Source of the DNA: Acidobacteriota bacterium
Lineage (GTDB): Bacteria > Acidobacteriota > UBA6911 > RPQK01 > JADFOI01
DNA: 64,000 bases
Direction of reading: 5' to 3'
Assembly (NCBI GenBank): GCA_963663035.1
Contig: OY760074.1
Location: forward strand, 640,001 to 704,000
Numbering within the stretch: position 1 is the first letter of the stretch; every line of letters begins with the position of its first letter. Position numbers and translations under genes: made by a program. The notes beneath the pieces are model-generated. The model worked only from the letters and a program-made list of their open reading frames with translations, searched no databases and had not been told where the DNA came from. Below, piece by piece: positions 2,580 through 64,000 of this stretch.

Positions 2580-3081
2580 GCGGGTGTCCAGGAAGGCCAA
2601 GCTCTTCGTTCTCCGCGCCCTTCGATCCTCGACGTAGTTAGTGCCTCGCTTCATAGATACGGTAACATTTGTGGCGAGCGCGACGGCGTCGAGTTCGCGA
2701 AGCGACGACGACGCGATGCCAGAGTGAATCGCGGAGGAGGAGCGACAAAGAAATCGATGCCGTACCGCCGCCACCCTTTGGGCTGATGGGGGTTGCGGGC
2801 GATCTCTGTGTCCCTCGTCGTCGCCGATGTCCCTGACATCGCCTCCTCCCCGCTCCTTGACCTGCCCCATCAGCAAATGTCATCGTATCTATGAAACGAG
2901 GCACTGAGGCTACGCCTGCGGTCGAAGGGCTTGTGCGGCCTCGATCTTGATCGCCTCCTCCCCGCTCCGCCTCGCAAGCCCCATCAGCAAATGTCATCGT
3001 ATCTATGAAACGAGGCACTGAGGCTACGCCTGCGGTCGAAGGGCTTGTGCGGCCTCGATCTTGACCTTCCTGGACACCCGC
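2580..3081. mobile_element. Palindromic MITE-like element family A, carrying a nested family B element and a partial duplication
   Basis: Perfect 17-bp terminal inverted repeat GCGGGTGTCCAGGAAGG (2580-2596) / CCTTCCTGGACACCCGC (3065-3081). The same element forms the 168-bp array unit at 22819-23490. Confidence 0.75.
2641..2904. mobile_element. MITE-like element family B (~264 bp)
   Basis: ~31-bp imperfect TIR GTGCCTCGCTTCATAGATACGGTAACATTTG / CAAATGTCATCGTATCTATGAAACGAGGCAC. The body is homologous to 41659-41931 in reverse orientation. Confidence 0.75.
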
Positions 3082-10515: not shown

Positions 10516-10522
10516 CAGCTGA

Positions 10523-10543
10523 CTTCCTGACTCCTGACTCCTT
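10523..10543. repeat. Short heptamer array (CTCCTGA-type)
   Basis: CTTCCTGACTCCTGACTCCT between the convergent thiE and PKS stops. Confidence 0.55.
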
Positions 10544-18750: not shown

Positions 18751-18891
18751 AGAAGTCAGGAGGCAGGAGTCAGGAGTCAGGAGAGAGAATCCAGAAGTCA
18801 GAATCCAGAATATCTTTGGAACCGCGAAGCGCGTCTCCTACCTCCTATCTCCTACCTCCTATCTCCTGCAACTTGGAACTTGGCACTTGGA
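18751..18891. repeat. Inverted heptamer arrays around a CGCGAAGCGCG hairpin
   Basis: AGGAGTC/AGGAGGC/AGAATCC units at 18751-18810, a spacer containing CGCGAAGCGCG, CTCCTAC/CTCCTAT units at 18835-18869, then ACTTGG(N) x3. Confidence 0.8.
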
Positions 18892-22813: not shown

Positions 22814-22818
22814 CTAGC

Positions 22819-23490
22819 GCGGGTGCCCAGGAAGGCCAAGCTCTTCGTTCTCCGCGCCCTTCGATCCTCGACGTAGGTAGTCCTACGCCTGCGGTCGAAG
22901 GGCTTGTGCGGCCTCGATTTTGACCTTCCTGACCATCCGCCACCTGAACCCCGGAGGGTAGCCTTCCAGTAAAACTCGCCTCATGCGCGGGTGCCCAGGA
23001 AGGCCAAGCTCTTCGTTCTCCGCGCCCTTCGATCCTCGACGTAGGTAGTCCTACGCCTGCGGTCGAAGGGCTTGTGCGGCCTCGATTTTGACCTTCCTGA
23101 CCATCCGCCACCTGAACCCCGGAGGGTAGCCTTCCAGTAAAACTCGCCTCATGCGCGGGTGCCCAGGAAGGCCAAGCTCTTCGTTCTCCGCGCCCTTCGT
23201 TCCTCGACGTAGGTAGTCCTACGCCTGCGGTCGAAGGGCTTGTGCGGCCTCGATCTTGACCTTCCTGAACACCCGCCACCAGAACGCCGGAGGGTAGCCT
23301 TCCAGTAAAACTCGCCTCATGCGCGGGTGCCCAGGAAGGCCAAGCTCTTCGTTCTCCGCGCCCTTCGTTCCTCGACGTAGCGAGCGCTATGCCTGCGGTC
23401 GAAGGGCTTGTGCGGCCTCGATCTTGACCTTCCTGAACACCCGCCACCAGAACGCCGGAATGAAGCCTTCCAGTAAAACTTGCCTCATGC
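22819..23490. repeat. Tandem array of 4 x 168-bp units, each a palindromic family A element plus a linker
   Basis: Units start at 22819, 22987, 23155 and 23323. Each is GCGGGTGCCCAGGAAGG...CCTTCCTGA(C/A)CA(T/C)CCGC followed by a ~46-bp linker. Confidence 0.95.
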
Positions 23491-45113: not shown

Positions 45114-45140
45114 AGGAGAGAGGAGTCAGGAGTCAGGAGT
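45114..45140. repeat. Short heptamer array (AGGAGTC-type)
   Basis: AGGAGAGAGGAGTCAGGAGTCAGGAGT. Confidence 0.55.
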
Positions 45141-46376: not shown

Positions 46377-47174
46377 GTGAGAAACATGCAGATTTCCCCA
46401 CCACACCTTGAAGAACTCCGCTACGCAAAGTATCTTTTGGAAAAACCCAGCCTGGCTGCCAGATTGACGGATAAGGTGGGAACACCGATCGAGAAGGGTT
46501 TCGCCTTACTTCCGGGAAACTGGACTGAGACCATCCGGGAGACCGTGAACAGCTCGTTGCAGAAGGCCCTTGAAGTGGCTGTGAAATCACTGGGAAAAAC
46601 CGGCGGCCCAACTCAGGAGCGCTTTCACACATTAGCTGCCATCACCGCAGGGGCGACCGGAGGTGCTTTCGGTTTGCCCGGGGTACTGATCGAACTGCCT
46701 ATTTCCACCACCATCATCTTTCGCTCCATTGCCGACATTGCCCGCAGTGAAGGCGAAGATATCAGCTCAATTGAAACAAGATTGGCTTGCCTGGAAGTGT
46801 TTGCCCTGGGAGGGAAATCGGGCTCGGATGACGCTGTTGAAACAGGTTACTTCGCGGTTCGGTCTGCTTTGGCAAAATCGGTCAGTGAAGCTGCTGGCCA
46901 TATCGCCGAGAAAGGGCTGGTTGAAAAAGGAGCACCTGCCTTAGTTCGATTGATCTCGGCAGTCACTTCCCGATTTGGCATTGCCGTCTCCGAAAAGGTC
47001 GCCGCCATGGCTGTTCCAGCCATTGGAGCGGTGGGTGGGGCCCTCATCAATTCAGTTTTCATCAATCATTTTCAAAACATGGCCCGGGGACACTTCATCG
47101 TTCGACGCCTGGAAGGGGAATACGACAAGGAGTCAGTCCAGGAAGCATATGAAGCGCTGACCACTGACAACTGA
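46377..47174 (+). CDS. EcsC family protein
   Basis: GATGGAFGL...ELPISTTIIFRSIADIARSEGED...CLEVFALGG...FQNMARGHFIVRRLE. Confidence 0.8.
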   Translation: MRNMQISPPHLEELRYAKYLLEKPSLAARLTDKVGTPIEKGFALLPGNWTETIRETVNSSLQKALEVAVKSLGKTGGPTQERFHTLAAITAGATGGAFGLPGVLIELPISTTIIFRSIADIARSEGEDISSIETRLACLEVFALGGKSGSDDAVETGYFAVRSALAKSVSEAAGHIAEKGLVEKGAPALVRLISAVTSRFGIAVSEKVAAMAVPAIGAVGGALINSVFINHFQNMARGHFIVRRLEGEYDKESVQEAYEALTTDN

Positions 47175-47258
47175 CCACTGACAACTGACCACTGACAACT
47201 GACAACTGACAATAGAACAGCTGACCTCCTGACTCCTGCCTCCTGACTCCTGCCTCCT
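47157..47258. repeat. Two adjoining heptamer arrays: CTGAC(C/A)A x~8, then CTCCTG(A/C) x~5
   Basis: Read directly; the first array overlaps the EcsC stop codon. Confidence 0.85.
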
Positions 47259-50153: not shown

Positions 50154-51792
50154 CCCGGATTATTCATAAATTCTGAAGAAGGGGTCTGATCGAGGGCACA
50201 AAAAGATGCCGTACCTCTTTGATATAAAAGGGTTTATGAAACAACTCCAAACCAAAAAGGTACGGCCCAGCGATGCATCAGTCTGCCAGATCAACTTGCC
50301 ATCTCACCCTGACAGAAAAGTGGTGGCTCGATTCGATGGAGGCCGGCTCTCCTCCGATGCCGGGCTGCTGTGTCTGTACGCCCTGGATCAACAGCACGGA
50401 CTGACGGCTGGCTTTGCCTCCTGCCTGAAGGACGCTCGAGATAGCCGCTACGTCCGCCACCAGATTCGCGAACTGCTCACCCAGCGCAGCTTTCAGATCG
50501 TGGCCGGCTATGAGGACTGCAACGATGCCGACAGCTTGCGCTCGGATCCCATCTTCAAGACCGTGTGTGATCGGCTGCCGGAAAGCGATCCGGATCTGGC
50601 TTCTCAACCCACGCTGTCGCGACTGGAGAACTCGGTGGACTCGAAGGATCTCACTCGCCTGGGACAGTGGCTGCTGGAGACCTACTTGAAGCACCGCAAG
50701 AAGAGCCGGCCCGAGAAGATCATCCTGGACATCGACAGCACGGATGACGTCACGCATGGGCAGCAGGAGTTCAGCTTTTACCACGGCTATTATCGCGAGC
50801 ACATGTATCATCCGCTGTTGCTATTCGATGGCGAGACGGGCGATCTGGTATGTGCGCTACTGCGGCCCGGCAACCAGGGGGCGGCCGCCCACGCGGTGGC
50901 GGTTCTCAAACGGGTGGTGGCCCGGATGCGCCAGGTTCTGGGATCCGATGTTCCGATCGAAGTGCGAGCCGACAGTGGCTTTGCGACGCCGGCACTGTAC
51001 GAGTTCTGTGAGGAGGAAAAACTGCAGTATGTGGTGGGCTTTGCCCGCAACTCCCGGCTGGCGGCCACCGTCGAGCCCTTGGTTGAGCAGGTGCAAGCAG
51101 ACTATGACGACTCAGGAGAAAAGCAACGCCAGTTCACCGAGCTCGTCTATCAGGCCGACAGTTGGGACCGGGAGCGGCGCATGGTGGCCAAGGTGGAAGT
51201 GAGCGAGCGCGGGTTCAACCGTCGCTTTGTGGTCACCAACCGCCAGGATCTCACGGCCGGGCAGCTGTATGACCACTACATCGGACGGGGCCAGTGCGAG
51301 AACTTCGTGAAAGCTTTCAAAAAAGATCTGGCCATGGATCGCTTGAGCTGCCACCGTTTCCTGGCCAACCAGTTCCGACTCTTCATCCACGCCCTGGCCT
51401 ATGTCTTAATCCTGCGCCTGCGGGATTACCTGTGCGGGACTCCCTGGCACAACCTGGAGATTGAGACGCTCCGCCGCCGCCTGTTCAAAATCGGTGCCCG
51501 GGTTCGGGAAACTTCTCGTCGCATCTGGGTGCACCTGGCATCGTCTTATCCCGAACAAAAGCTCTTCGCATTACTGATGCACCGTCTGTGTCCCACCTGA
51601 CGGTCCCCTGACTCCCTGCGCCAACACAGATATACAGCCCCCTGCGGGCCGAGCTGTTTCCGGAAGGGGCTCTCGCTTCATCTCTATTCGGCTCAACAAG
51701 CTTGGACGCCTTGTAATCGCACCTGAACACACTCTCAGCCCTGAACTTCCGCAGAAAATCGACACTCACCCCAAACTTATGAATAATTGCGG
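50154..51792 (+). mobile_element. IS1380-family insertion sequence (1639 bp) with CTAG flanks
   Basis: TIR CCCGGATTATTCATAA / TTATGAATAATTGCGG; CTAG at 50150-50153 and 51793-51796; single transposase ORF. Confidence 0.92.
50206..51600 (+). CDS. IS1380-family DDE transposase
   Basis: FDGGRLSSDAGL, GYEDCND, LASQPTLSRLEN, LDIDSTDD..HGQQE, LRPGN, RADSGF, Y..RG..EN..K and ANQFRL. Confidence 0.93.
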   Translation: MPYLFDIKGFMKQLQTKKVRPSDASVCQINLPSHPDRKVVARFDGGRLSSDAGLLCLYALDQQHGLTAGFASCLKDARDSRYVRHQIRELLTQRSFQIVAGYEDCNDADSLRSDPIFKTVCDRLPESDPDLASQPTLSRLENSVDSKDLTRLGQWLLETYLKHRKKSRPEKIILDIDSTDDVTHGQQEFSFYHGYYREHMYHPLLLFDGETGDLVCALLRPGNQGAAAHAVAVLKRVVARMRQVLGSDVPIEVRADSGFATPALYEFCEEEKLQYVVGFARNSRLAATVEPLVEQVQADYDDSGEKQRQFTELVYQADSWDRERRMVAKVEVSERGFNRRFVVTNRQDLTAGQLYDHYIGRGQCENFVKAFKKDLAMDRLSCHRFLANQFRLFIHALAYVLILRLRDYLCGTPWHNLEIETLRRRLFKIGARVRETSRRIWVHLASSYPEQKLFALLMHRLCPT

Positions 51793-59694: not shown

Positions 59695-60714
59695 ATGAAG
59701 CGAAAAGCAATGGGGGCAGTCAGCTTCCTACTTCTTCTGCTGTTTCTATTTCCACTCGACGTCTTGGGCGAACGGAAACACGGCGACGTGGAGGATATCG
59801 GCAATCGCGAAATCAACGGCAGGGTGGCCTGGATTTTCCCCAATTTCGTCTCCCTGGAAAAGGAAATTCAGCTGGGAGCTCAGCTGGCTATGGAAATGGA
59901 CCGGACGGCCCGTTTTGTTGAGGATCCTGTCGTGGTGGAGTACATCGAGCAACTCTCTCAGGAGATCGTCAAGCACTCGGATGCCAAGGTTCCATTTGTG
60001 GTGAAGGTGGTTGACACGGATGAAGTCAATGCCTTTGCGTTCCCCGGAGGGTATTTCTACGTCAACAAGGGGCTGATCCTGGAAGCTGAAAGTGAGTCAG
60101 AATTGGCAGGGGTCCTGGCTCATGAGATTGCACATGTGACCGCCCGTCACTATGCGGAAGCCGCTACCAAGAGTCAGTTGCTGCAGTATGCGACGATTCC
60201 TGTGCTTTTCGTCGGTGGCGGTTGGGCCCAGTATGGACTTTACACGGGATTGGGACTGGGAATGGACCTGGCGTTGCTCGGAGTCACTCGAAAATCGGAG
60301 GCGGAAGCCGATCAGCTGGGCACCCAGTACCTGTGGAATACTGACTATGATCCCAATGCCTTCATCACTTTCTTTGAGAAATTGCAGGCCAAGGAAAAAG
60401 AGAAACCAGGAAAGTTCGCAGGCTTCTGGAGGACTCATCCCAGCCTTGAAGATCGAATTGAGAAGGTCCAGGAGGAAATCTCCTACCTTCCTGGTAAGGA
60501 CGAATATATTCTCAATGGATCTCAGTTCGAGCGTGCCAAGGCCCGCCTCATTGAAATCGATAACGGTTTACTCCTTTCCGGTTCATCTTCCGGTAGCGGT
60601 GCAGCCAAAAGACCCACACTCAAGCGCAGGACCAATCGGGACAGCCAAGATGAAGGGGAAGAACCGACTCTGGAGAAAGATCGACCCACTCTCAAGCGAC
60701 CAGAGGAAGGGTAA
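59695..60714 (+). CDS. M48 family metallopeptidase (exported)
   Basis: VNAFAFPGG, ELAGVLAHEIAH (HExxH), EAEAD and RTHP...RI. ATG 59695 begins a signal peptide. Confidence 0.9.
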   Translation: MKRKAMGAVSFLLLLLFLFPLDVLGERKHGDVEDIGNREINGRVAWIFPNFVSLEKEIQLGAQLAMEMDRTARFVEDPVVVEYIEQLSQEIVKHSDAKVPFVVKVVDTDEVNAFAFPGGYFYVNKGLILEAESESELAGVLAHEIAHVTARHYAEAATKSQLLQYATIPVLFVGGGWAQYGLYTGLGLGMDLALLGVTRKSEAEADQLGTQYLWNTDYDPNAFITFFEKLQAKEKEKPGKFAGFWRTHPSLEDRIEKVQEEISYLPGKDEYILNGSQFERAKARLIEIDNGLLLSGSSSGSGAAKRPTLKRRTNRDSQDEGEEPTLEKDRPTLKRPEEG

Positions 60715-60764
60715 ACGCTGACCGCCGCCGGCCGAAGGCCGACGGAAATTCCAAACCTGGATCC

Positions 60765-60816
60765 TGGAACGCGCGCGAAGCGCGCCTCCTGACTCCTGTC
60801 TCCTGCCCCCTGCCTT
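60765..60816. repeat. GCGAAGC hairpin followed by a heptamer array
   Basis: TGGAACGCGCGCGAAGCGCGC then CTCCTGA CTCCTGT CTCCTGC CCCCTGC. Confidence 0.7.
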
Positions 60817-60835
60817 CTCAAGGTATAATCTTACG

Positions 60836-61648
60836 ATGTTTCTTGTTGAGGGGTTTTTCATCGCCTTCGGGTTGGCTGTGGGCAGCTTCCTCAATGTTTG
60901 TATCTACCGAATTCCTCGGGGTCAGTCAGTGCTTTTCCCCAGGTCGAACTGCCGAAAGTGCGATCATCCCATCAGACCCTGGGAGAATATCCCCCTCCTC
61001 AGTTATCTTCTCTTGCGTGGAAAATGCAGCCAGTGCGGTTGTCGCATTTCCTGGGTTTATCCGACCGTGGAAGTCATTACCGGTCTACTCTTTTACCTTT
61101 TACTTTTGAAGTACGGATTTCACACTCCGCTATTCATCAACATGGTCTTTTTTAGCCTTCTTTTGATCTTACTCTTCGTGGACCTCTTTGAAAGGCTGCT
61201 CCCCAATGTCATAACTCTGGGTGGTCTGGCCTTTGGACTGGTAGTGGCCCCTCTGCAGTCCGAGGAGTTCTTGGGCGCCTTTCGCTTGCTGGATCTCCCC
61301 AATGTGGTGTGGTTTCAATATATCGATTCAATACTCGGTATCTTAGTGGGAGGAGGCTTCCTTTGGCTGGTCGCGGAGCTGTACTTTAGAGTCAAGAAAG
61401 TGGAAGGGATGGGCTTTGGTGATATCAAGATGATGGCTATGGTGGGGGCCTTTCTGGGATGGGCTTATACCTGGCTAACGATACTCCTGGGGTCGCTGCT
61501 GGGAGCATTGATCGGATCACTCTACATGTTTGTTTTTCGAAAAGGGCGCAAGTATCAGCTGCCCTTCGGAAGCTTTCTGGCCGTGGGTGCTATTGCCAGC
61601 ACCCTTTGGGGGCGGAAACTGCTCACTTTCTACCTCACGCAGTTTTAA
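60836..61648 (+). CDS. pilD: Prepilin peptidase PilD
   Basis: GSFLNVCIYRIP, two CxxC pairs, ENIPLLSY, GMGFGDIKM and LPFGSFL. Confidence 0.93.
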   Translation: MFLVEGFFIAFGLAVGSFLNVCIYRIPRGQSVLFPRSNCRKCDHPIRPWENIPLLSYLLLRGKCSQCGCRISWVYPTVEVITGLLFYLLLLKYGFHTPLFINMVFFSLLLILLFVDLFERLLPNVITLGGLAFGLVVAPLQSEEFLGAFRLLDLPNVVWFQYIDSILGILVGGGFLWLVAELYFRVKKVEGMGFGDIKMMAMVGAFLGWAYTWLTILLGSLLGALIGSLYMFVFRKGRKYQLPFGSFLAVGAIASTLWGRKLLTFYLTQF

Positions 61649-61651
61649 GAG

Positions 61652-61683
61652 AGGAGTCAGGAGTCAGGAGTCAGGAGGCAGAA
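61652..61683. repeat. Heptamer array AGGAGTC x3 + AGGAGGC (downstream flank of the four-helix-bundle gene)
   Basis: Read directly; overlaps the stop codon of 61664-62032. Confidence 0.85.
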
Positions 61684-62032
61684 TTCCTCGTCGGTAGCCC
61701 TCCAGGAGTCGGCTGACTTCCTCCAGCTGGATCAACAGATCTTCGCCAGGCAAATAAGTTAGGTTTGTCGCTAAGATCAGATAATAGCGAGTTTCTTGAA
61801 GAGAGCCCTGTGCAATGTTCATGAAACGAGCTTTGTCAGCCTTGCTCCTTCGTTTAAAGTCTTCCGCAATATTTGCCGGAATTGATATGGCAGCACGACG
61901 CAATTGTGTGGTGAGTCCGTAAATCTCTCGTTTAGGAAAGCCCTGCGAGTAGCGATAGACCTGCAGCACAAAGGTGTGAGCCTTCTGCCAAACAACCAGA
62001 TCCTCAAACGTTTTTGCCGCCTCCCTCTTCAT
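61664..62032 (-). CDS. Four-helix-bundle protein (TIGR02436 / '23S rRNA IVS protein' / bAvd-like)
   Basis: FEDLVVWQKA, FPKREIYGLTTQLRRAAISIPANIAE and FMNIAQGSLQET. Confidence 0.9.
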   Translation of the reverse strand: MKREAAKTFEDLVVWQKAHTFVLQVYRYSQGFPKREIYGLTTQLRRAAISIPANIAEDFKRRSKADKARFMNIAQGSLQETRYYLILATNLTYLPGEDLLIQLEEVSRLLEGYRRGILPPDS

Positions 62033-62186
62033 CCTACTTCCTACCTCCTGCCTCCTACCTCCTGCCTCCTACCTCCTGCCTCCTACCTCCTGCCTCCTGC
62101 CTCCTACCTCCTGCCTCCTGCCTCCTACCTCCTACCTCCTGCCTCCTGCCTCCTACCTCCTACCTCCTATCTTCAACCTCCTGACT
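62033..62186. repeat. Heptamer array of ~22 units, 18 of them perfect CCT(A/G)CCT
   Basis: Counted by eye; perfect units span 62040-62165. Confidence 0.95.
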
Positions 62187-62477
62187 CCCCTCTTCCTTTA
62201 CCGAAATAAGATCCTGCAGCTTTAAGAACTTTTTTTCACCGATTCCCCGGATATTCAGCAAATCCTCAATCCGTTGGAAAGGACCGCTCCTCTCGCGAAG
62301 CTCCAGGATGCGTTCAGCAATCACAGGCCCGATGCCCGGCAGACTGTCAAGCTGTGAGAAAGTGGCTGTGTTGAGATTGATCTTTGGTGTCTGTTCGCCC
62401 TCTGTCGCCGAAACGCACAGAAGGAGTACCAGAACTCCCATGGACACCTGCCAAGTAGATCCTTTTGCTTTCATCAT
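62160..62477 (-). CDS. comEA: ComEA-like helix-hairpin-helix DNA-binding protein
   Basis: Signal peptide, KINLNTAT...LPGIGPVIAERI...GPFQRIEDLLNIRGIGEKKF. Confidence 0.9.
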   Translation of the reverse strand: MMKAKGSTWQVSMGVLVLLLCVSATEGEQTPKINLNTATFSQLDSLPGIGPVIAERILELRERSGPFQRIEDLLNIRGIGEKKFLKLQDLISVKEEGSQEVEDRR

Positions 62478-62583
62478 ATTTATCCTCCTTCTTACTACAA
62501 CGCTCCACCCGGAGAATCTACGAATAAATCTTCGCCACCTCTGTCTTCTGTCTTCTTCCTCTAAAGGGGAGTAAACTGAAGCG

Positions 62584-64000
62584 ATGAAGACGGAGTGTCT
62601 CGATTATCGACAGCTTCCCGGACTGAATCCTCTTTTTCTGGAATATCTGTATCACTACGATAGACTTGAGTCCCTCTACTCCTCTCCAGTGCATCTCAGC
62701 CTTGATGCTCTCAAGGAACGAGCCGACTCCGTGTTGAAAGACCCGCCACCTTTTCCCCGTGATCAACTCGTGGAGGTGACGACCGCTTTCAACCAAAGAG
62801 TTGGAGCCGGTGAGAAGGTTTTCCAGAATCTGGAAAAGCTGAAGTCCCCCAGGACATTAGCTGTGGTCACAGGACAACAGCCAGGTTTCTTCGGGGGGCC
62901 GGCGTATACAGTTTACAAGGCGCTCACGGCCATTCGCTTGGCCCAGATGTTGGATGAAGAAGGCTACCCTGCGGTTCCTGTTTTCTGGTTGGCATCCGAT
63001 GACTCCGATTTCCAGGAGGTCCGACTCACATCGTTCTTCGATGGCAATGGAGATCTGTTTTCGGTGAGTTATCAGGGTCCCCAGCAGAATGATTCACGAA
63101 TGGTGGGGACGATCCCTTTGAACACTGTCGAGGAGTGTTTCAGCCGTTTGCAGCAAGAGGGTCCCAAAGGAGAGTTTCATGAAGATGTCCTCCAGCTGCT
63201 CCAGGAAACTTTTCCTCCTGCAAAAACTCTCAGCGAAGCCGCGGGCTCATGGTTAAGCCACCTCTTTCGTCCCTACGGTCTCGTTCTCTTTGATGCGCTT
63301 CTTCCTGAATACAAGCAAGGGGTGGGATCCTTGTTTGCTCGGGCCATAGAGAACCGCCAGGAGATTGTCCAAGCTCTGAAAGGCAGAGCCGAAGTGTTGA
63401 GAGAAAAGGGATTCGATTCCCAGGTTCGGGTCCAGGATTCGGAGAGTTTCCTTTTCTGGACAGAGGATGAGAAGCGCTACAAGTTGGAGTATGAAGGAGA
63501 GCGATTTCGGAAGAAAGCACTGGACTCTCCGAAGTTAAGTGAACGGGATCTGTTGAGGGAGCTTGACCAGCAGGCAGAAAAGTTTGCTCCTAACGTGCTC
63601 CTGAGGCCCATAGTCCAAGACCATCTGTTTCCCACTGTGGCCTATGTGGGAGGTCCTTCAGAAGTTGCCTACTTTGCTCAGGTTAGTGCCATTAGTCGGT
63701 TTTGGGACAAGGAAATGGCTGTGTTTCCGCGAGTCGGGGTCACCCTGGTGGATCGAAAAGCTCAGCGCTTGTTGAGGAAGTATGGGCTGAAGGTCTTGGA
63801 TGTTTTGCAACTGACTCCACAAGAGATCTCGCGTAGGATTGTGAAGGGCAAGGACCCGGAGAATATTCTGGAAAGGCTTGAGCATGTGCAGGAGGAACTC
63901 CAGTCTGAACTGGGAGCACTGAAGGATGATATTGCCAAGATTGACCCGACCGTAGCGGAGATGCTGGGGGGAACAGAGAAGAAGGTTCTATACCAGATCG
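62584..64000 (+). CDS. bshC: Bacillithiol biosynthesis cysteine-adding enzyme BshC (3'-truncated by window edge; absent from the ORF track)
   Basis: Manual translation gives AVVTGQQPGFFGGPAYTVYKA, VPVFWLASDDSDFQEV and PNVLLRPIVQDHLFPTVAYVGGPSEVAYFAQ. Confidence 0.88.
   Translation, partial: MKTECLDYRQLPGLNPLFLEYLYHYDRLESLYSSPVHLSLDALKERADSVLKDPPPFPRDQLVEVTTAFNQRVGAGEKVFQNLEKLKSPRTLAVVTGQQPGFFGGPAYTVYKALTAIRLAQMLDEEGYPAVPVFWLASDDSDFQEVRLTSFFDGNGDLFSVSYQGPQQNDSRMVGTIPLNTVEECFSRLQQEGPKGEFHEDVLQLLQETFPPAKTLSEAAGSWLSHLFRPYGLVLFDALLPEYKQGVGSLFARAIENRQEIVQALKGRAEVLREKGFDSQVRVQDSESFLFWTEDEKRYKLEYEGERFRKKALDSPKLSERDLLRELDQQAEKFAPNVLLRPIVQDHLFPTVAYVGGPSEVAYFAQVSAISRFWDKEMAVFPRVGVTLVDRKAQRLLRKYGLKVLDVLQLTPQEISRRIVKGKDPENILERLEHVQEELQSELGALKDDIAKIDPTVAEMLGGTEKKVLYQI

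Follow-up and report, generated by a model that had tools for sequence, protein, structure and literature searches.

Intervening sequences (IVSs) of ribosomal RNA (rRNA) have been without an accepted origin or function since the 1990s. In Coxiella burnetii, helix 45 of the 23S rRNA holds a 428-nt element with an open reading frame (ORF) for the protein S23p; its ends form a 28-bp terminal stem that is cut in the middle by RNase III, and a purine-rich site followed by three tandem GACAGAT heptamers, the number of which varies among strains, stands directly before the start codon (PMC4990558, in the portion of the text available). ORF-bearing IVSs occur also in Leptospira, according to the same source (PMC4990558). 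The protein family concerned (PF05635/TIGR02436) is a large one, the small genes of which are unexplained, and heptamer microsatellites are likewise an unexplained oddity of many bacterial genomes, examples being GGGAATC in Xanthomonas (PMC4692102), where the available text counts 70-75 convergent inverted heptamer pairs, TAACTGA in Beggiatoaceae (PMC4679880) and the short tandemly repeated repetitive (STRR) type of cyanobacteria. The subject of the present analysis is a locus at which such a gene and such repeats are found together, namely positions 61652-62186 of a 64,000-nt stretch (the window) of an Acidobacteriota bacterium, which corresponds to positions 640001-704000 of a closed 3.59-Mb genome (G000; 54% G+C, 96.6% complete). 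The element found there is very probably a hairpin gene cassette of the IVS type, that is, a promoterless PF05635 gene held between two complementary heptamer arrays.

The gene (61664-62032, minus strand) encodes a four-helix-bundle protein of 122 residues in an intact frame, which belongs both to PF05635 (E 1.7e-35, 121.9 bits; cut-off 33.8) and to TIGR02436, the family named for the 23S rRNA IVS protein and four helix bundle protein (115.2 bits; cut-off 24), and which scores below the cut-off of the bAvd family PF22296 (22.2 bits versus 40). On its coding strand it is preceded by a purine-rich 5' arm (62033-62186, minus strand) of 22 heptamers that reaches the ATG and is likely to contain the ribosome-binding site; in register, 18 of the 22 are perfect AGG(T/C)AGG, with 19 AGGAGG words, and Tandem Repeats Finder reports the array at 62032-62182 with period 7, 21.6 copies and 86% matches. 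The 3' arm (61652-61681, minus strand), detected by the same program, is of the complementary type, (GACTCCT)x4.3 on the coding strand and AGGAGTC x4.3 on the plus strand; it encodes the last residues of the protein (..LPPDS) and contains its TGA. Two convergent genes frame the cassette: a comEA-like gene (HHH_3 profile match; 62160-62477, minus strand), upstream of and co-oriented with it, the last codons and stop of which (62160-62162) sit within the outermost, degenerate part of the 5' arm, and pilD (prepilin peptidase, A24; 60836-61648, plus strand), the stop of which lies 3 nt before the 3' arm. The array-encoded tail of the comEA-like product (62160-62195) ends ..KEEGSQEVEDRR. The first-pass annotation of the window had described this arrangement, with about 22 heptamers (18 perfect) before the 122-residue gene, a complementary array after it, and arrays supplying the stops of both the gene and comEA, correctly to the base. 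Its reading of each heptamer junction as a stacked Shine-Dalgarno sequence is specific to the units of this host, as relatives carry AGAATCC, AGAAGCA and others.

No promoter-like site was found on the strand of the gene at this locus, the sole promoter-like site lying on the plus strand inside the span of the ORF, and no terminator-like site was found in the cassette. Known RNA families, including rRNA, gave no match above chance in 60500-62700; the cassette lies between comEA and pilD, and hence not in an rRNA helix such as that which houses the 23S rRNA IVS.

The layout of the locus is conserved across relatives. In a scan with one genome per species, 358 relatives were found, of which the best 80 (61-76% identity), from 13 phyla including Acidobacteriota, Cyanobacteriota, Nitrospirota, Chloroflexota, Planctomycetota, Verrucomicrobiota and Bacillota, were used for layout counts. 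An upstream motif (at least two AGRA..AGRA pairs at lag 7 within 140 nt before the start) is present in 70/80, a downstream motif (two or more TYCT..TYCT pairs in the stretch that begins 45 nt upstream of the stop and extends 100 nt beyond it) in 71/80, and both together in 64/80; the opposite orientation is seen in 2-3/80, and the background for each motif, in windows taken from the same loci, is 6/2074. The flank comparison across family genes in other genomes that had been proposed with the first-pass annotation is, thus, strongly positive. An earlier count of flanked loci based on Tandem Repeats Finder (52/80) missed short arrays and mis-set starts and is superseded by these figures. Clustering of the flanks divides the 80 loci into 52 groups on the upstream side and 51 on the downstream side; the largest group, of 13-14 loci, is a junction between a kinase and a response-regulator gene. 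In the relatives, in which units of the AGAATCC, AGAAGCA and AGAAGAC types and others are used, the array typically abuts the start codon (..CAGGAGTCAGAATG), and the last five or six codons together with the stop are themselves array units (..ATTCTGACTCCTGA). The cassette points the same way as its upstream gene in 67 loci and the opposite way in 10; it shares its orientation with both neighbours in 52/80, and the median gaps to the neighbours are 54 and 39 nt; the '+,-' arrangement of the window is common to 10/80. Host genes also run into the arrays, such as the histidine kinases at L008, L017, L026, L070, L074 and similar loci, which end ..GVRSQESEARSQNG; the arrays give neighbours variable C-terminal tails and stop codons.

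More distant members of the family have arms built of other units. Among the best 30 PF05635 loci from other Acidobacteriota (35-52% identity to the window protein), the arms are made of AGGGATC, GGGACCT, GGCAGTA, GCAGTGG, GGCATTA or GGAGACG, or have period 8. The score of a locus's own arms is 15 or higher at 18 of the 28 evaluable loci, as against 14 of 754 cross-locus pairs, and in these 18 the G-rich arm precedes the gene on the coding strand, except in L115. Across the family, structure is conserved while sequence is not, and the gene with its inverted arrays is one conserved unit across phyla. Period-8 arms, with units like GGGGACTA, were seen in the PF05635 subfamilies at L121, L134 and L135.

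The two arms co-vary, in line with the ability to pair that had been ascribed to the flanks beforehand: they are complementary, and they change together across loci. The cosine of unit composition between arms of the same locus is 0.487, against 0.259 +/- 0.024 when arms are permuted, and none of 5000 permutations attains the within-locus value. Ungapped matching of the two arms gives a best complementary stretch with a median length of 30 nt over 79 evaluated loci; the copy in the window also reaches 30 nt, and the minimum-free-energy fold of its 601-nt transcript contains 43 arm-to-arm pairs. For a test anchored by homology, the window and 24 loci with the same 122-codon frame were aligned with codon 116 and the start codon as the two fixed points of the register. 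In the resulting 35-pair stem, which includes the start codon, 76.2% of cells pair, a share that falls to 34-46% if the partner is displaced by 1-3 columns, and 19 of the 35 pairs are altered on both sides. Cells with a double change number 52 versus 28 +/- 5 expected by shuffling, and none of 500 shuffles reaches 52; the 25 sequences are related and the register was picked from their consensus, so that the shuffle figures are not probabilities. Duplex folds over whole 130-nt windows are uninformative, as nearly everything is paired (median 77 pairs).

Among close relatives the locus is polymorphic, one and the same spacer having the cassette in some and lacking it in others, as emerged from the comparison of the pilD-comEA region that the first-pass annotation had called for. 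In G002, of the same genus and with a pilD 90% identical, pilD and comEA are convergent with 54 bp between their stops and no gene at the site; the 54-bp spacer is (CTGTCAG)x3.7, and the first bases after the pilD stop are common to it and G000. In G008, from another genus of the same family, a 73% identical copy lies directly downstream of comEA. At the comEA site the cassette is, therefore, either old and lost from G002 and others, or gained twice. The window's subfamily was not found in five genomes of the same genus (88-96% complete), which hold orthologues of the second G000 copy and a third subfamily with GGTTCCA-type arms. This third subfamily, with arms of the GGTTCCA/TGGAACC type, was observed at L171-L173 (G002-G004) and not found in G000, which keeps a few arrays of the GGTTCCA unit family.

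A similar variability is found at the kinase/response-regulator junction, for which 15 orthologous loci from other genomes were surveyed, the kinase end not being found in 4. None of the 15 holds the window's subfamily; the variants include one spacer of 13 nt, several plain ones 150-300 bp long, an inverted array pair with no gene in it (L142) and a different PF05635 gene (L144; G061:C9, ~960-1500 as counted in the direction of the regulator gene; 133 residues, E 1.5e-14) with ATTTGGC/GCCAAAT arms. Because an empty pair, another PF05635 subfamily and the window's subfamily all occur in it, this spacer has been re-used repeatedly. In tallies of 201 Acidobacteriota genomes, three of them unpublished, the subfamily is rare and patchy (5/201, E <= 1e-30), and the whole PF05635/TIGR02436 family is found in 119/201 with 1-22 matches each. 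Relatives are carried by 20 cyanobacterial plasmids, 11 of which are predicted to be conjugative. An example is pNPUN02 of Nostoc punctiforme, on which NPUN_RS35280 stands between co-oriented genes in the classic form of the cassette, with (AGGAGTC)-type units before the start and TTCTGAC-type units across the stop. Phage records gave no match at E 1e-10. On the protein tree, phylum labels require 28 changes, where the minimum is 12 and shuffled labels give 36.8; this count, from a weak tree of 122 columns in which some bin labels are possibly wrong, is a hint compatible with many transfers.

The repeats themselves extend far beyond the cassette. Tandem repeats in G000 have period 7 far more often than any other, with 366 of 1549 Tandem Repeats Finder rows and 12.5 kb, versus 51 rows in a first-order Markov genome of equal size. 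After merging, about 334 arrays remain, in unit families such as CTGACAA, CTGACTC, AGGAGGC, AGGAGGT, CTGACAG and others, with 35% of array bases located in crude ORFs, which make up 89% of the genome; being tandem 7-nt units at many, mostly intergenic, loci, they are arrays of the STRR type. The longest runs for 684 bp at C1:924984-925667, outside the window, with about 98 copies of CCTCCTA at 88% matches, and another of 321 bp lies at C1:461527-461847. The arrays are a genome-wide repeat class that occurs also in places with no PF05635 gene. Adjacent inverted pairs not more than 120 bp apart, i.e. hairpins with no cargo, number 25 with the G-rich array first and 3 with the C-rich array first. 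Of the 3074 crude genes, only 16-23 are flanked by an array at each end, among them the two PF05635 genes of G000, the second of which (C1:3068743-3069060) is enclosed by (CTGACAA)n and (TTGTCAG)n. In eleven other inverted pairs the arrays are separated by 150-1500 bp. Ordinary genes lie within nine of these pairs (FolD, trigger factor, CoaE, SecG, YebC, a phosphoribosyltransferase, HemN-like, a molybdopterin-binding protein and an aminotransferase), a PIN-domain gene within another, and no ORF of at least 50 residues within the last.

The arms of a cassette match the commonest unit type of its host, AGGAGGY in G000 and AGAATYC in G077, where the latter is used both in the arms and in the dominant dispersed arrays. 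As regards the protein, the NIAEG motif of the family reads NIAED in the window copy, a departure noted at first inspection and borne out by alignment, where D58 stands against G in 75 of 76 sequences; similarly, Q79 replaces E (75/76) and N90 replaces D (74/76). With changes at three near-invariant positions, the copy may be decaying in place. Since its arms consist of the host's own commonest units and these three residues are changed, it is probably an old, decaying resident. The ratio of non-synonymous to synonymous substitution (dN/dS) is 0.02-0.26 in all 12 computable pairs of relatives, in which the protein is under purifying selection. Its relatives in the Protein Data Bank, 2gsc and 2rld, have five chains per entry, and PADLOC returned no defence match for the cassette.

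The element is best read as a non-ribosomal form of the ORF-bearing 23S rRNA IVS, because it has the same anatomy as the IVS of Coxiella and the AGAAGAC-type units of its subfamily resemble GACAGAT. The way in which such a cassette might work can be outlined in four steps. Transcription would reach it by read-through from the gene upstream, which in this case is comEA. The arms would then pair in the transcript to form a long stem hiding the ribosome-binding site and start codon, and RNase III, of which the host encodes one gene, would cut this stem as it does in the rRNA IVS of the same family; the cut would free the cassette RNA from that of the neighbours, making insertion into tight spacers or rRNA helices nearly harmless. 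At the DNA level, spacers already furnished with arrays or empty array hairpins would be the places where cassettes arrive, replace one another and disappear, probably through recombination or gene conversion within the arrays and with no recombinase of the cassette's own. Finally, the protein, as a pentamer, would probably bind nucleic acid, perhaps its own arms. Excision by RNase III, taken over by analogy from the rRNA elements, could go either way in our estimate, and the account as a whole, comprising the IVS-type cassette, read-through, the RNase III cut and array-mediated gain and loss, is favoured with moderate confidence. The excess of G-rich-first pairs (25 versus 3) may exist because the reverse order would leave a long C-rich RNA unpaired, where Rho, present in the host, could load. 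A much wider proposal is speculative and, taken together, rather doubtful: array hairpins with or without a PF05635 gene might together make up a single class of spacer elements that need no recombinase and remove themselves as RNA, the rRNA IVSs being a special case; the arrays would serve as portable homology arms for capture across phyla, a five-fold protein ring would read the 7-nt arms at about one unit per protomer (the typical complementary stretch of 30 nt corresponds to approximately 4-5 units), thereby controlling cutting or copying, and the G-rich-first bias would be the outcome of Rho avoidance.

Several observations weigh against this account. In Coxiella, S23p is probably not produced in vivo, and the excised IVS RNA is rapidly degraded (PMC4990558, portion available); since that RNA is short-lived, excision may silence the gene rather than express it. 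In the window itself the arms are unequal, 154 nt on the 5' side versus 30 nt on the 3' side, and the most favourable pairing falls on distal units some 95 nt upstream of the ATG; the ribosome-binding site may therefore not be hidden in this copy. Broken copies were found at five of the 80 relative loci (L012, L020, L038, L052 and L062). The layout has exceptions: in L025 and L029 (Calothrix) a purine-rich array of the same sense, with GGCAGAATTCAGGA units, follows the stop in a direct arrangement, L055 has pyrimidine-type arrays on both sides, and L077 and L069 fail the motif test. Within G000 alone, enclosure by arrays is suggestive and not specific to the gene, because FolD, trigger factor and other ordinary genes are enclosed too. 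The difference between G000 and G002 may be a gain or a loss. Lastly, the pairing of the arms is near-perfectly Watson-Crick (2024/2286), departures of the G.U type show no excess over those of the A.C type (78 versus 69), and duplex energies are equal for sense and antisense; the pairs thus carry no mark of selection acting on the sense RNA, and pairing at the DNA level fits as well as pairing in RNA.

This last point leads to the alternative that survives best, even if it is unlikely, of an element whose arms act as single-stranded DNA hairpins or cruciforms, with RNA pairing incidental, and are recognised or made either by an enzyme acting in trans, for instance a Y1/HUH transposase of the kind associated with insertion sequence (IS) IS200 or with repetitive extragenic palindromes (REP), or by replication or repair of palindromes. 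Besides the symmetry of the pairing, the two Y1_Tnp matches in G000 and the abundance of empty inverted pairs, 25 of them G-rich-first, are what such an element would predict. The Y1_Tnp genes, however, are far from the cassette in G000, the arms have no conserved unique end, their units varying by lineage and even between copies that are 63-73% identical, and the preferential co-orientation with the upstream gene (67 versus 10) points to transcription.

The match between the arms and the commonest unit of the host can also be taken to mean that the protein is a repeat-handling factor, a pentamer that binds nucleic acid with a 7-nt period and promotes, stabilises or regulates arrays of its own type throughout the genome, those flanking its gene being merely the nearest targets; this is, in our opinion, improbable. 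Avd, the relative of the protein in diversity-generating retroelements (DGRs), is a nucleic-acid binder, and the five chains in each of the structural relatives fit a ring of this kind. Counts of (AGRAKNN)x3 are 548, 168, 64, 40 and 24 in five genomes with the subfamily and 126, 34, 9, 4 and 2 in five from the same three families that are without it, a comparison of ten related genomes in which those without the subfamily hold other PF05635 subfamilies, and which is thus a hint only. G000 has about 334 arrays for two PF05635 genes, and G005, of the same genus and 93% complete, has no PF05635 match, yet 240 kb of it contain 22 period-7 rows, a number that falls inside the 10-39 found for stretches of equal length in G000, which speaks against the arrays depending on the gene.

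That a small accessory gene simply came to lie in microsatellite-filled spacers with no cassette being involved is highly improbable, for, although four successive spacers at the window locus hold arrays and housekeeping genes are among the 16-23 of 3074 crude genes flanked on both sides, the finding of both correctly oriented arms in 64/80 relatives (about 51 contexts, 13 phyla) against 6/2074 in the background, the abutment of the arms on the start and their overlap with the stop in a fixed register, and the enclosure of both PF05635 genes of G000 tell against it, and the motif counts, the stem test and the own-versus-cross-locus arm scores already contradict it.

As to the remainder of the window, related heptamers had been reported at several other places, including an inverted pair with no cargo, and Tandem Repeats Finder located all of them: a dispersed host array, GCCTCCT x4.6, at 60784-60815, upstream of pilD and outside the cassette; the cargo-less pair (AGTCAGG.. 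then CTCCTAC..) at 18751-18867, which is one of the 25 G-rich-first pairs of the genome; and arrays at 10519-10542, 45114-45140 and 47157-47258. Tandem repeats of other kinds occur at 2838-3064 (114 bp, 2 copies) and 22817-23490 (168 bp, 4 copies, 97% matches), and have in common a core of about 40 bp (..CTACGCCTGCGGTCGAAGGGCTTGTGCGGCCTCGATCTTG..). The nearest transposase, a DDE_Tnp_1_4 profile match of IS1380 type (E 7.7e-152), is encoded about 10 kb from the cassette at 50206-51600 on the plus strand; its neighbours are a VWA/YfbK-like gene and an alpha-2-macroglobulin gene. No integrase was found beside the cassette, where no search aimed at IntI was made. The initial statement that neither transposase nor reverse transcriptase is nearby extends, for the reverse transcriptase, to the whole of G000, in which no RVT_1 match was found (genome 96.6% complete), and applies, for the transposase, to the immediate surroundings only. 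Besides this DDE gene, two Y1_Tnp genes lie elsewhere in G000.

What is already in print are the rRNA IVSs, the heptamer microsatellites, including the convergent pairs of Xanthomonas, and the occurrence of family genes between cas genes, of which 18 are mentioned in the available text of one study (PMC3936711); PF05635 is also named in a figure legend on CRISPR-associated modules (PMC10910872, portion available). The terms 'intervening sequence', 'S23' and 'four helix' are absent from the available text of the two microsatellite papers (PMC4692102 and PMC4679880), and a full-text literature search, in which subscription journals are thinly covered, returned no paper tying non-rRNA PF05635 genes to heptamer arrays. 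New here are the empty site within the same genus, the repeated use of one junction, whether by different subfamilies or by a hairpin with no cargo, the stem test anchored by homology, the agreement between the arms and the arrays of the host, the finding of an array-bearing relative with no family gene found in it, the carriage by plasmids and the signs of decay. If it is true that the small gene family, the ribosomal IVSs and the heptamer microsatellites are one hairpin-cassette system, the role of S23p, the tolerance of rRNA towards IVSs and the period of 7 become questions for the bench, for which the pNPUN02 cassette of Nostoc punctiforme is a tractable carrier at hand. For annotation, it is relevant that cassettes sit within operons and provide the stop codons and C-terminal tails of their neighbours.

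With respect to known systems, the DGR protein Avd is distant four-helix-bundle kin (PHROG 3206, E 3.5e-7; NF033474, 28.6 bits; five chains in 2gsc), but the NF033474 score is well below the cut-off of 80, the genome has no RVT_1 match, and the protein is not classed as an Avd; no template or variable repeats were noticed near the gene, where no search aimed at such repeats was made. Integron cassettes and MITEs (miniature inverted-repeat transposable elements) are also small, promoterless units, with a single gene, fold-back ends, tight spacers and transcription from outside, but the present cassette has two variable microsatellite arms in place of one attC site or fixed terminal repeats. As regards the marks of IS elements and MITEs, the arms vary in unit and length among loci, and the boundaries fall inside arrays, so that no target-site duplication is readable. 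Microsatellites of the STRR type resemble the arms in being intergenic tandem 7-mers abundant throughout the genome, as exemplified by the ~334 arrays and 25 G-rich-first pairs of G000, and differ in that the arrays here are the termini of a conserved gene cassette. The suggestion of the first-pass annotation that this is an undescribed system stands in that no description outside rRNA was found in the literature searched, and gives way in that the anatomy is that of the ORF-bearing 23S rRNA IVS. The differences from the latter are that the cassette in the window lies between protein-coding genes instead of in an rRNA helix, that its arms are long microsatellite arrays of up to 22 units, and that the RNase III cut, demonstrated for the rRNA IVS, is here inferred. 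The likenesses are the PF05635 'S23p' protein family itself, an ORF in the loop of a stem made of terminal inverted repeats (28 bp in Coxiella, a median of 30 nt in the cassettes), heptamers directly before the start (GACAGAT in Coxiella, 22 units in the window, and present in 70/80 relatives), a copy number that varies among strains in Coxiella, the lack of a recombinase of its own and horizontal acquisition.

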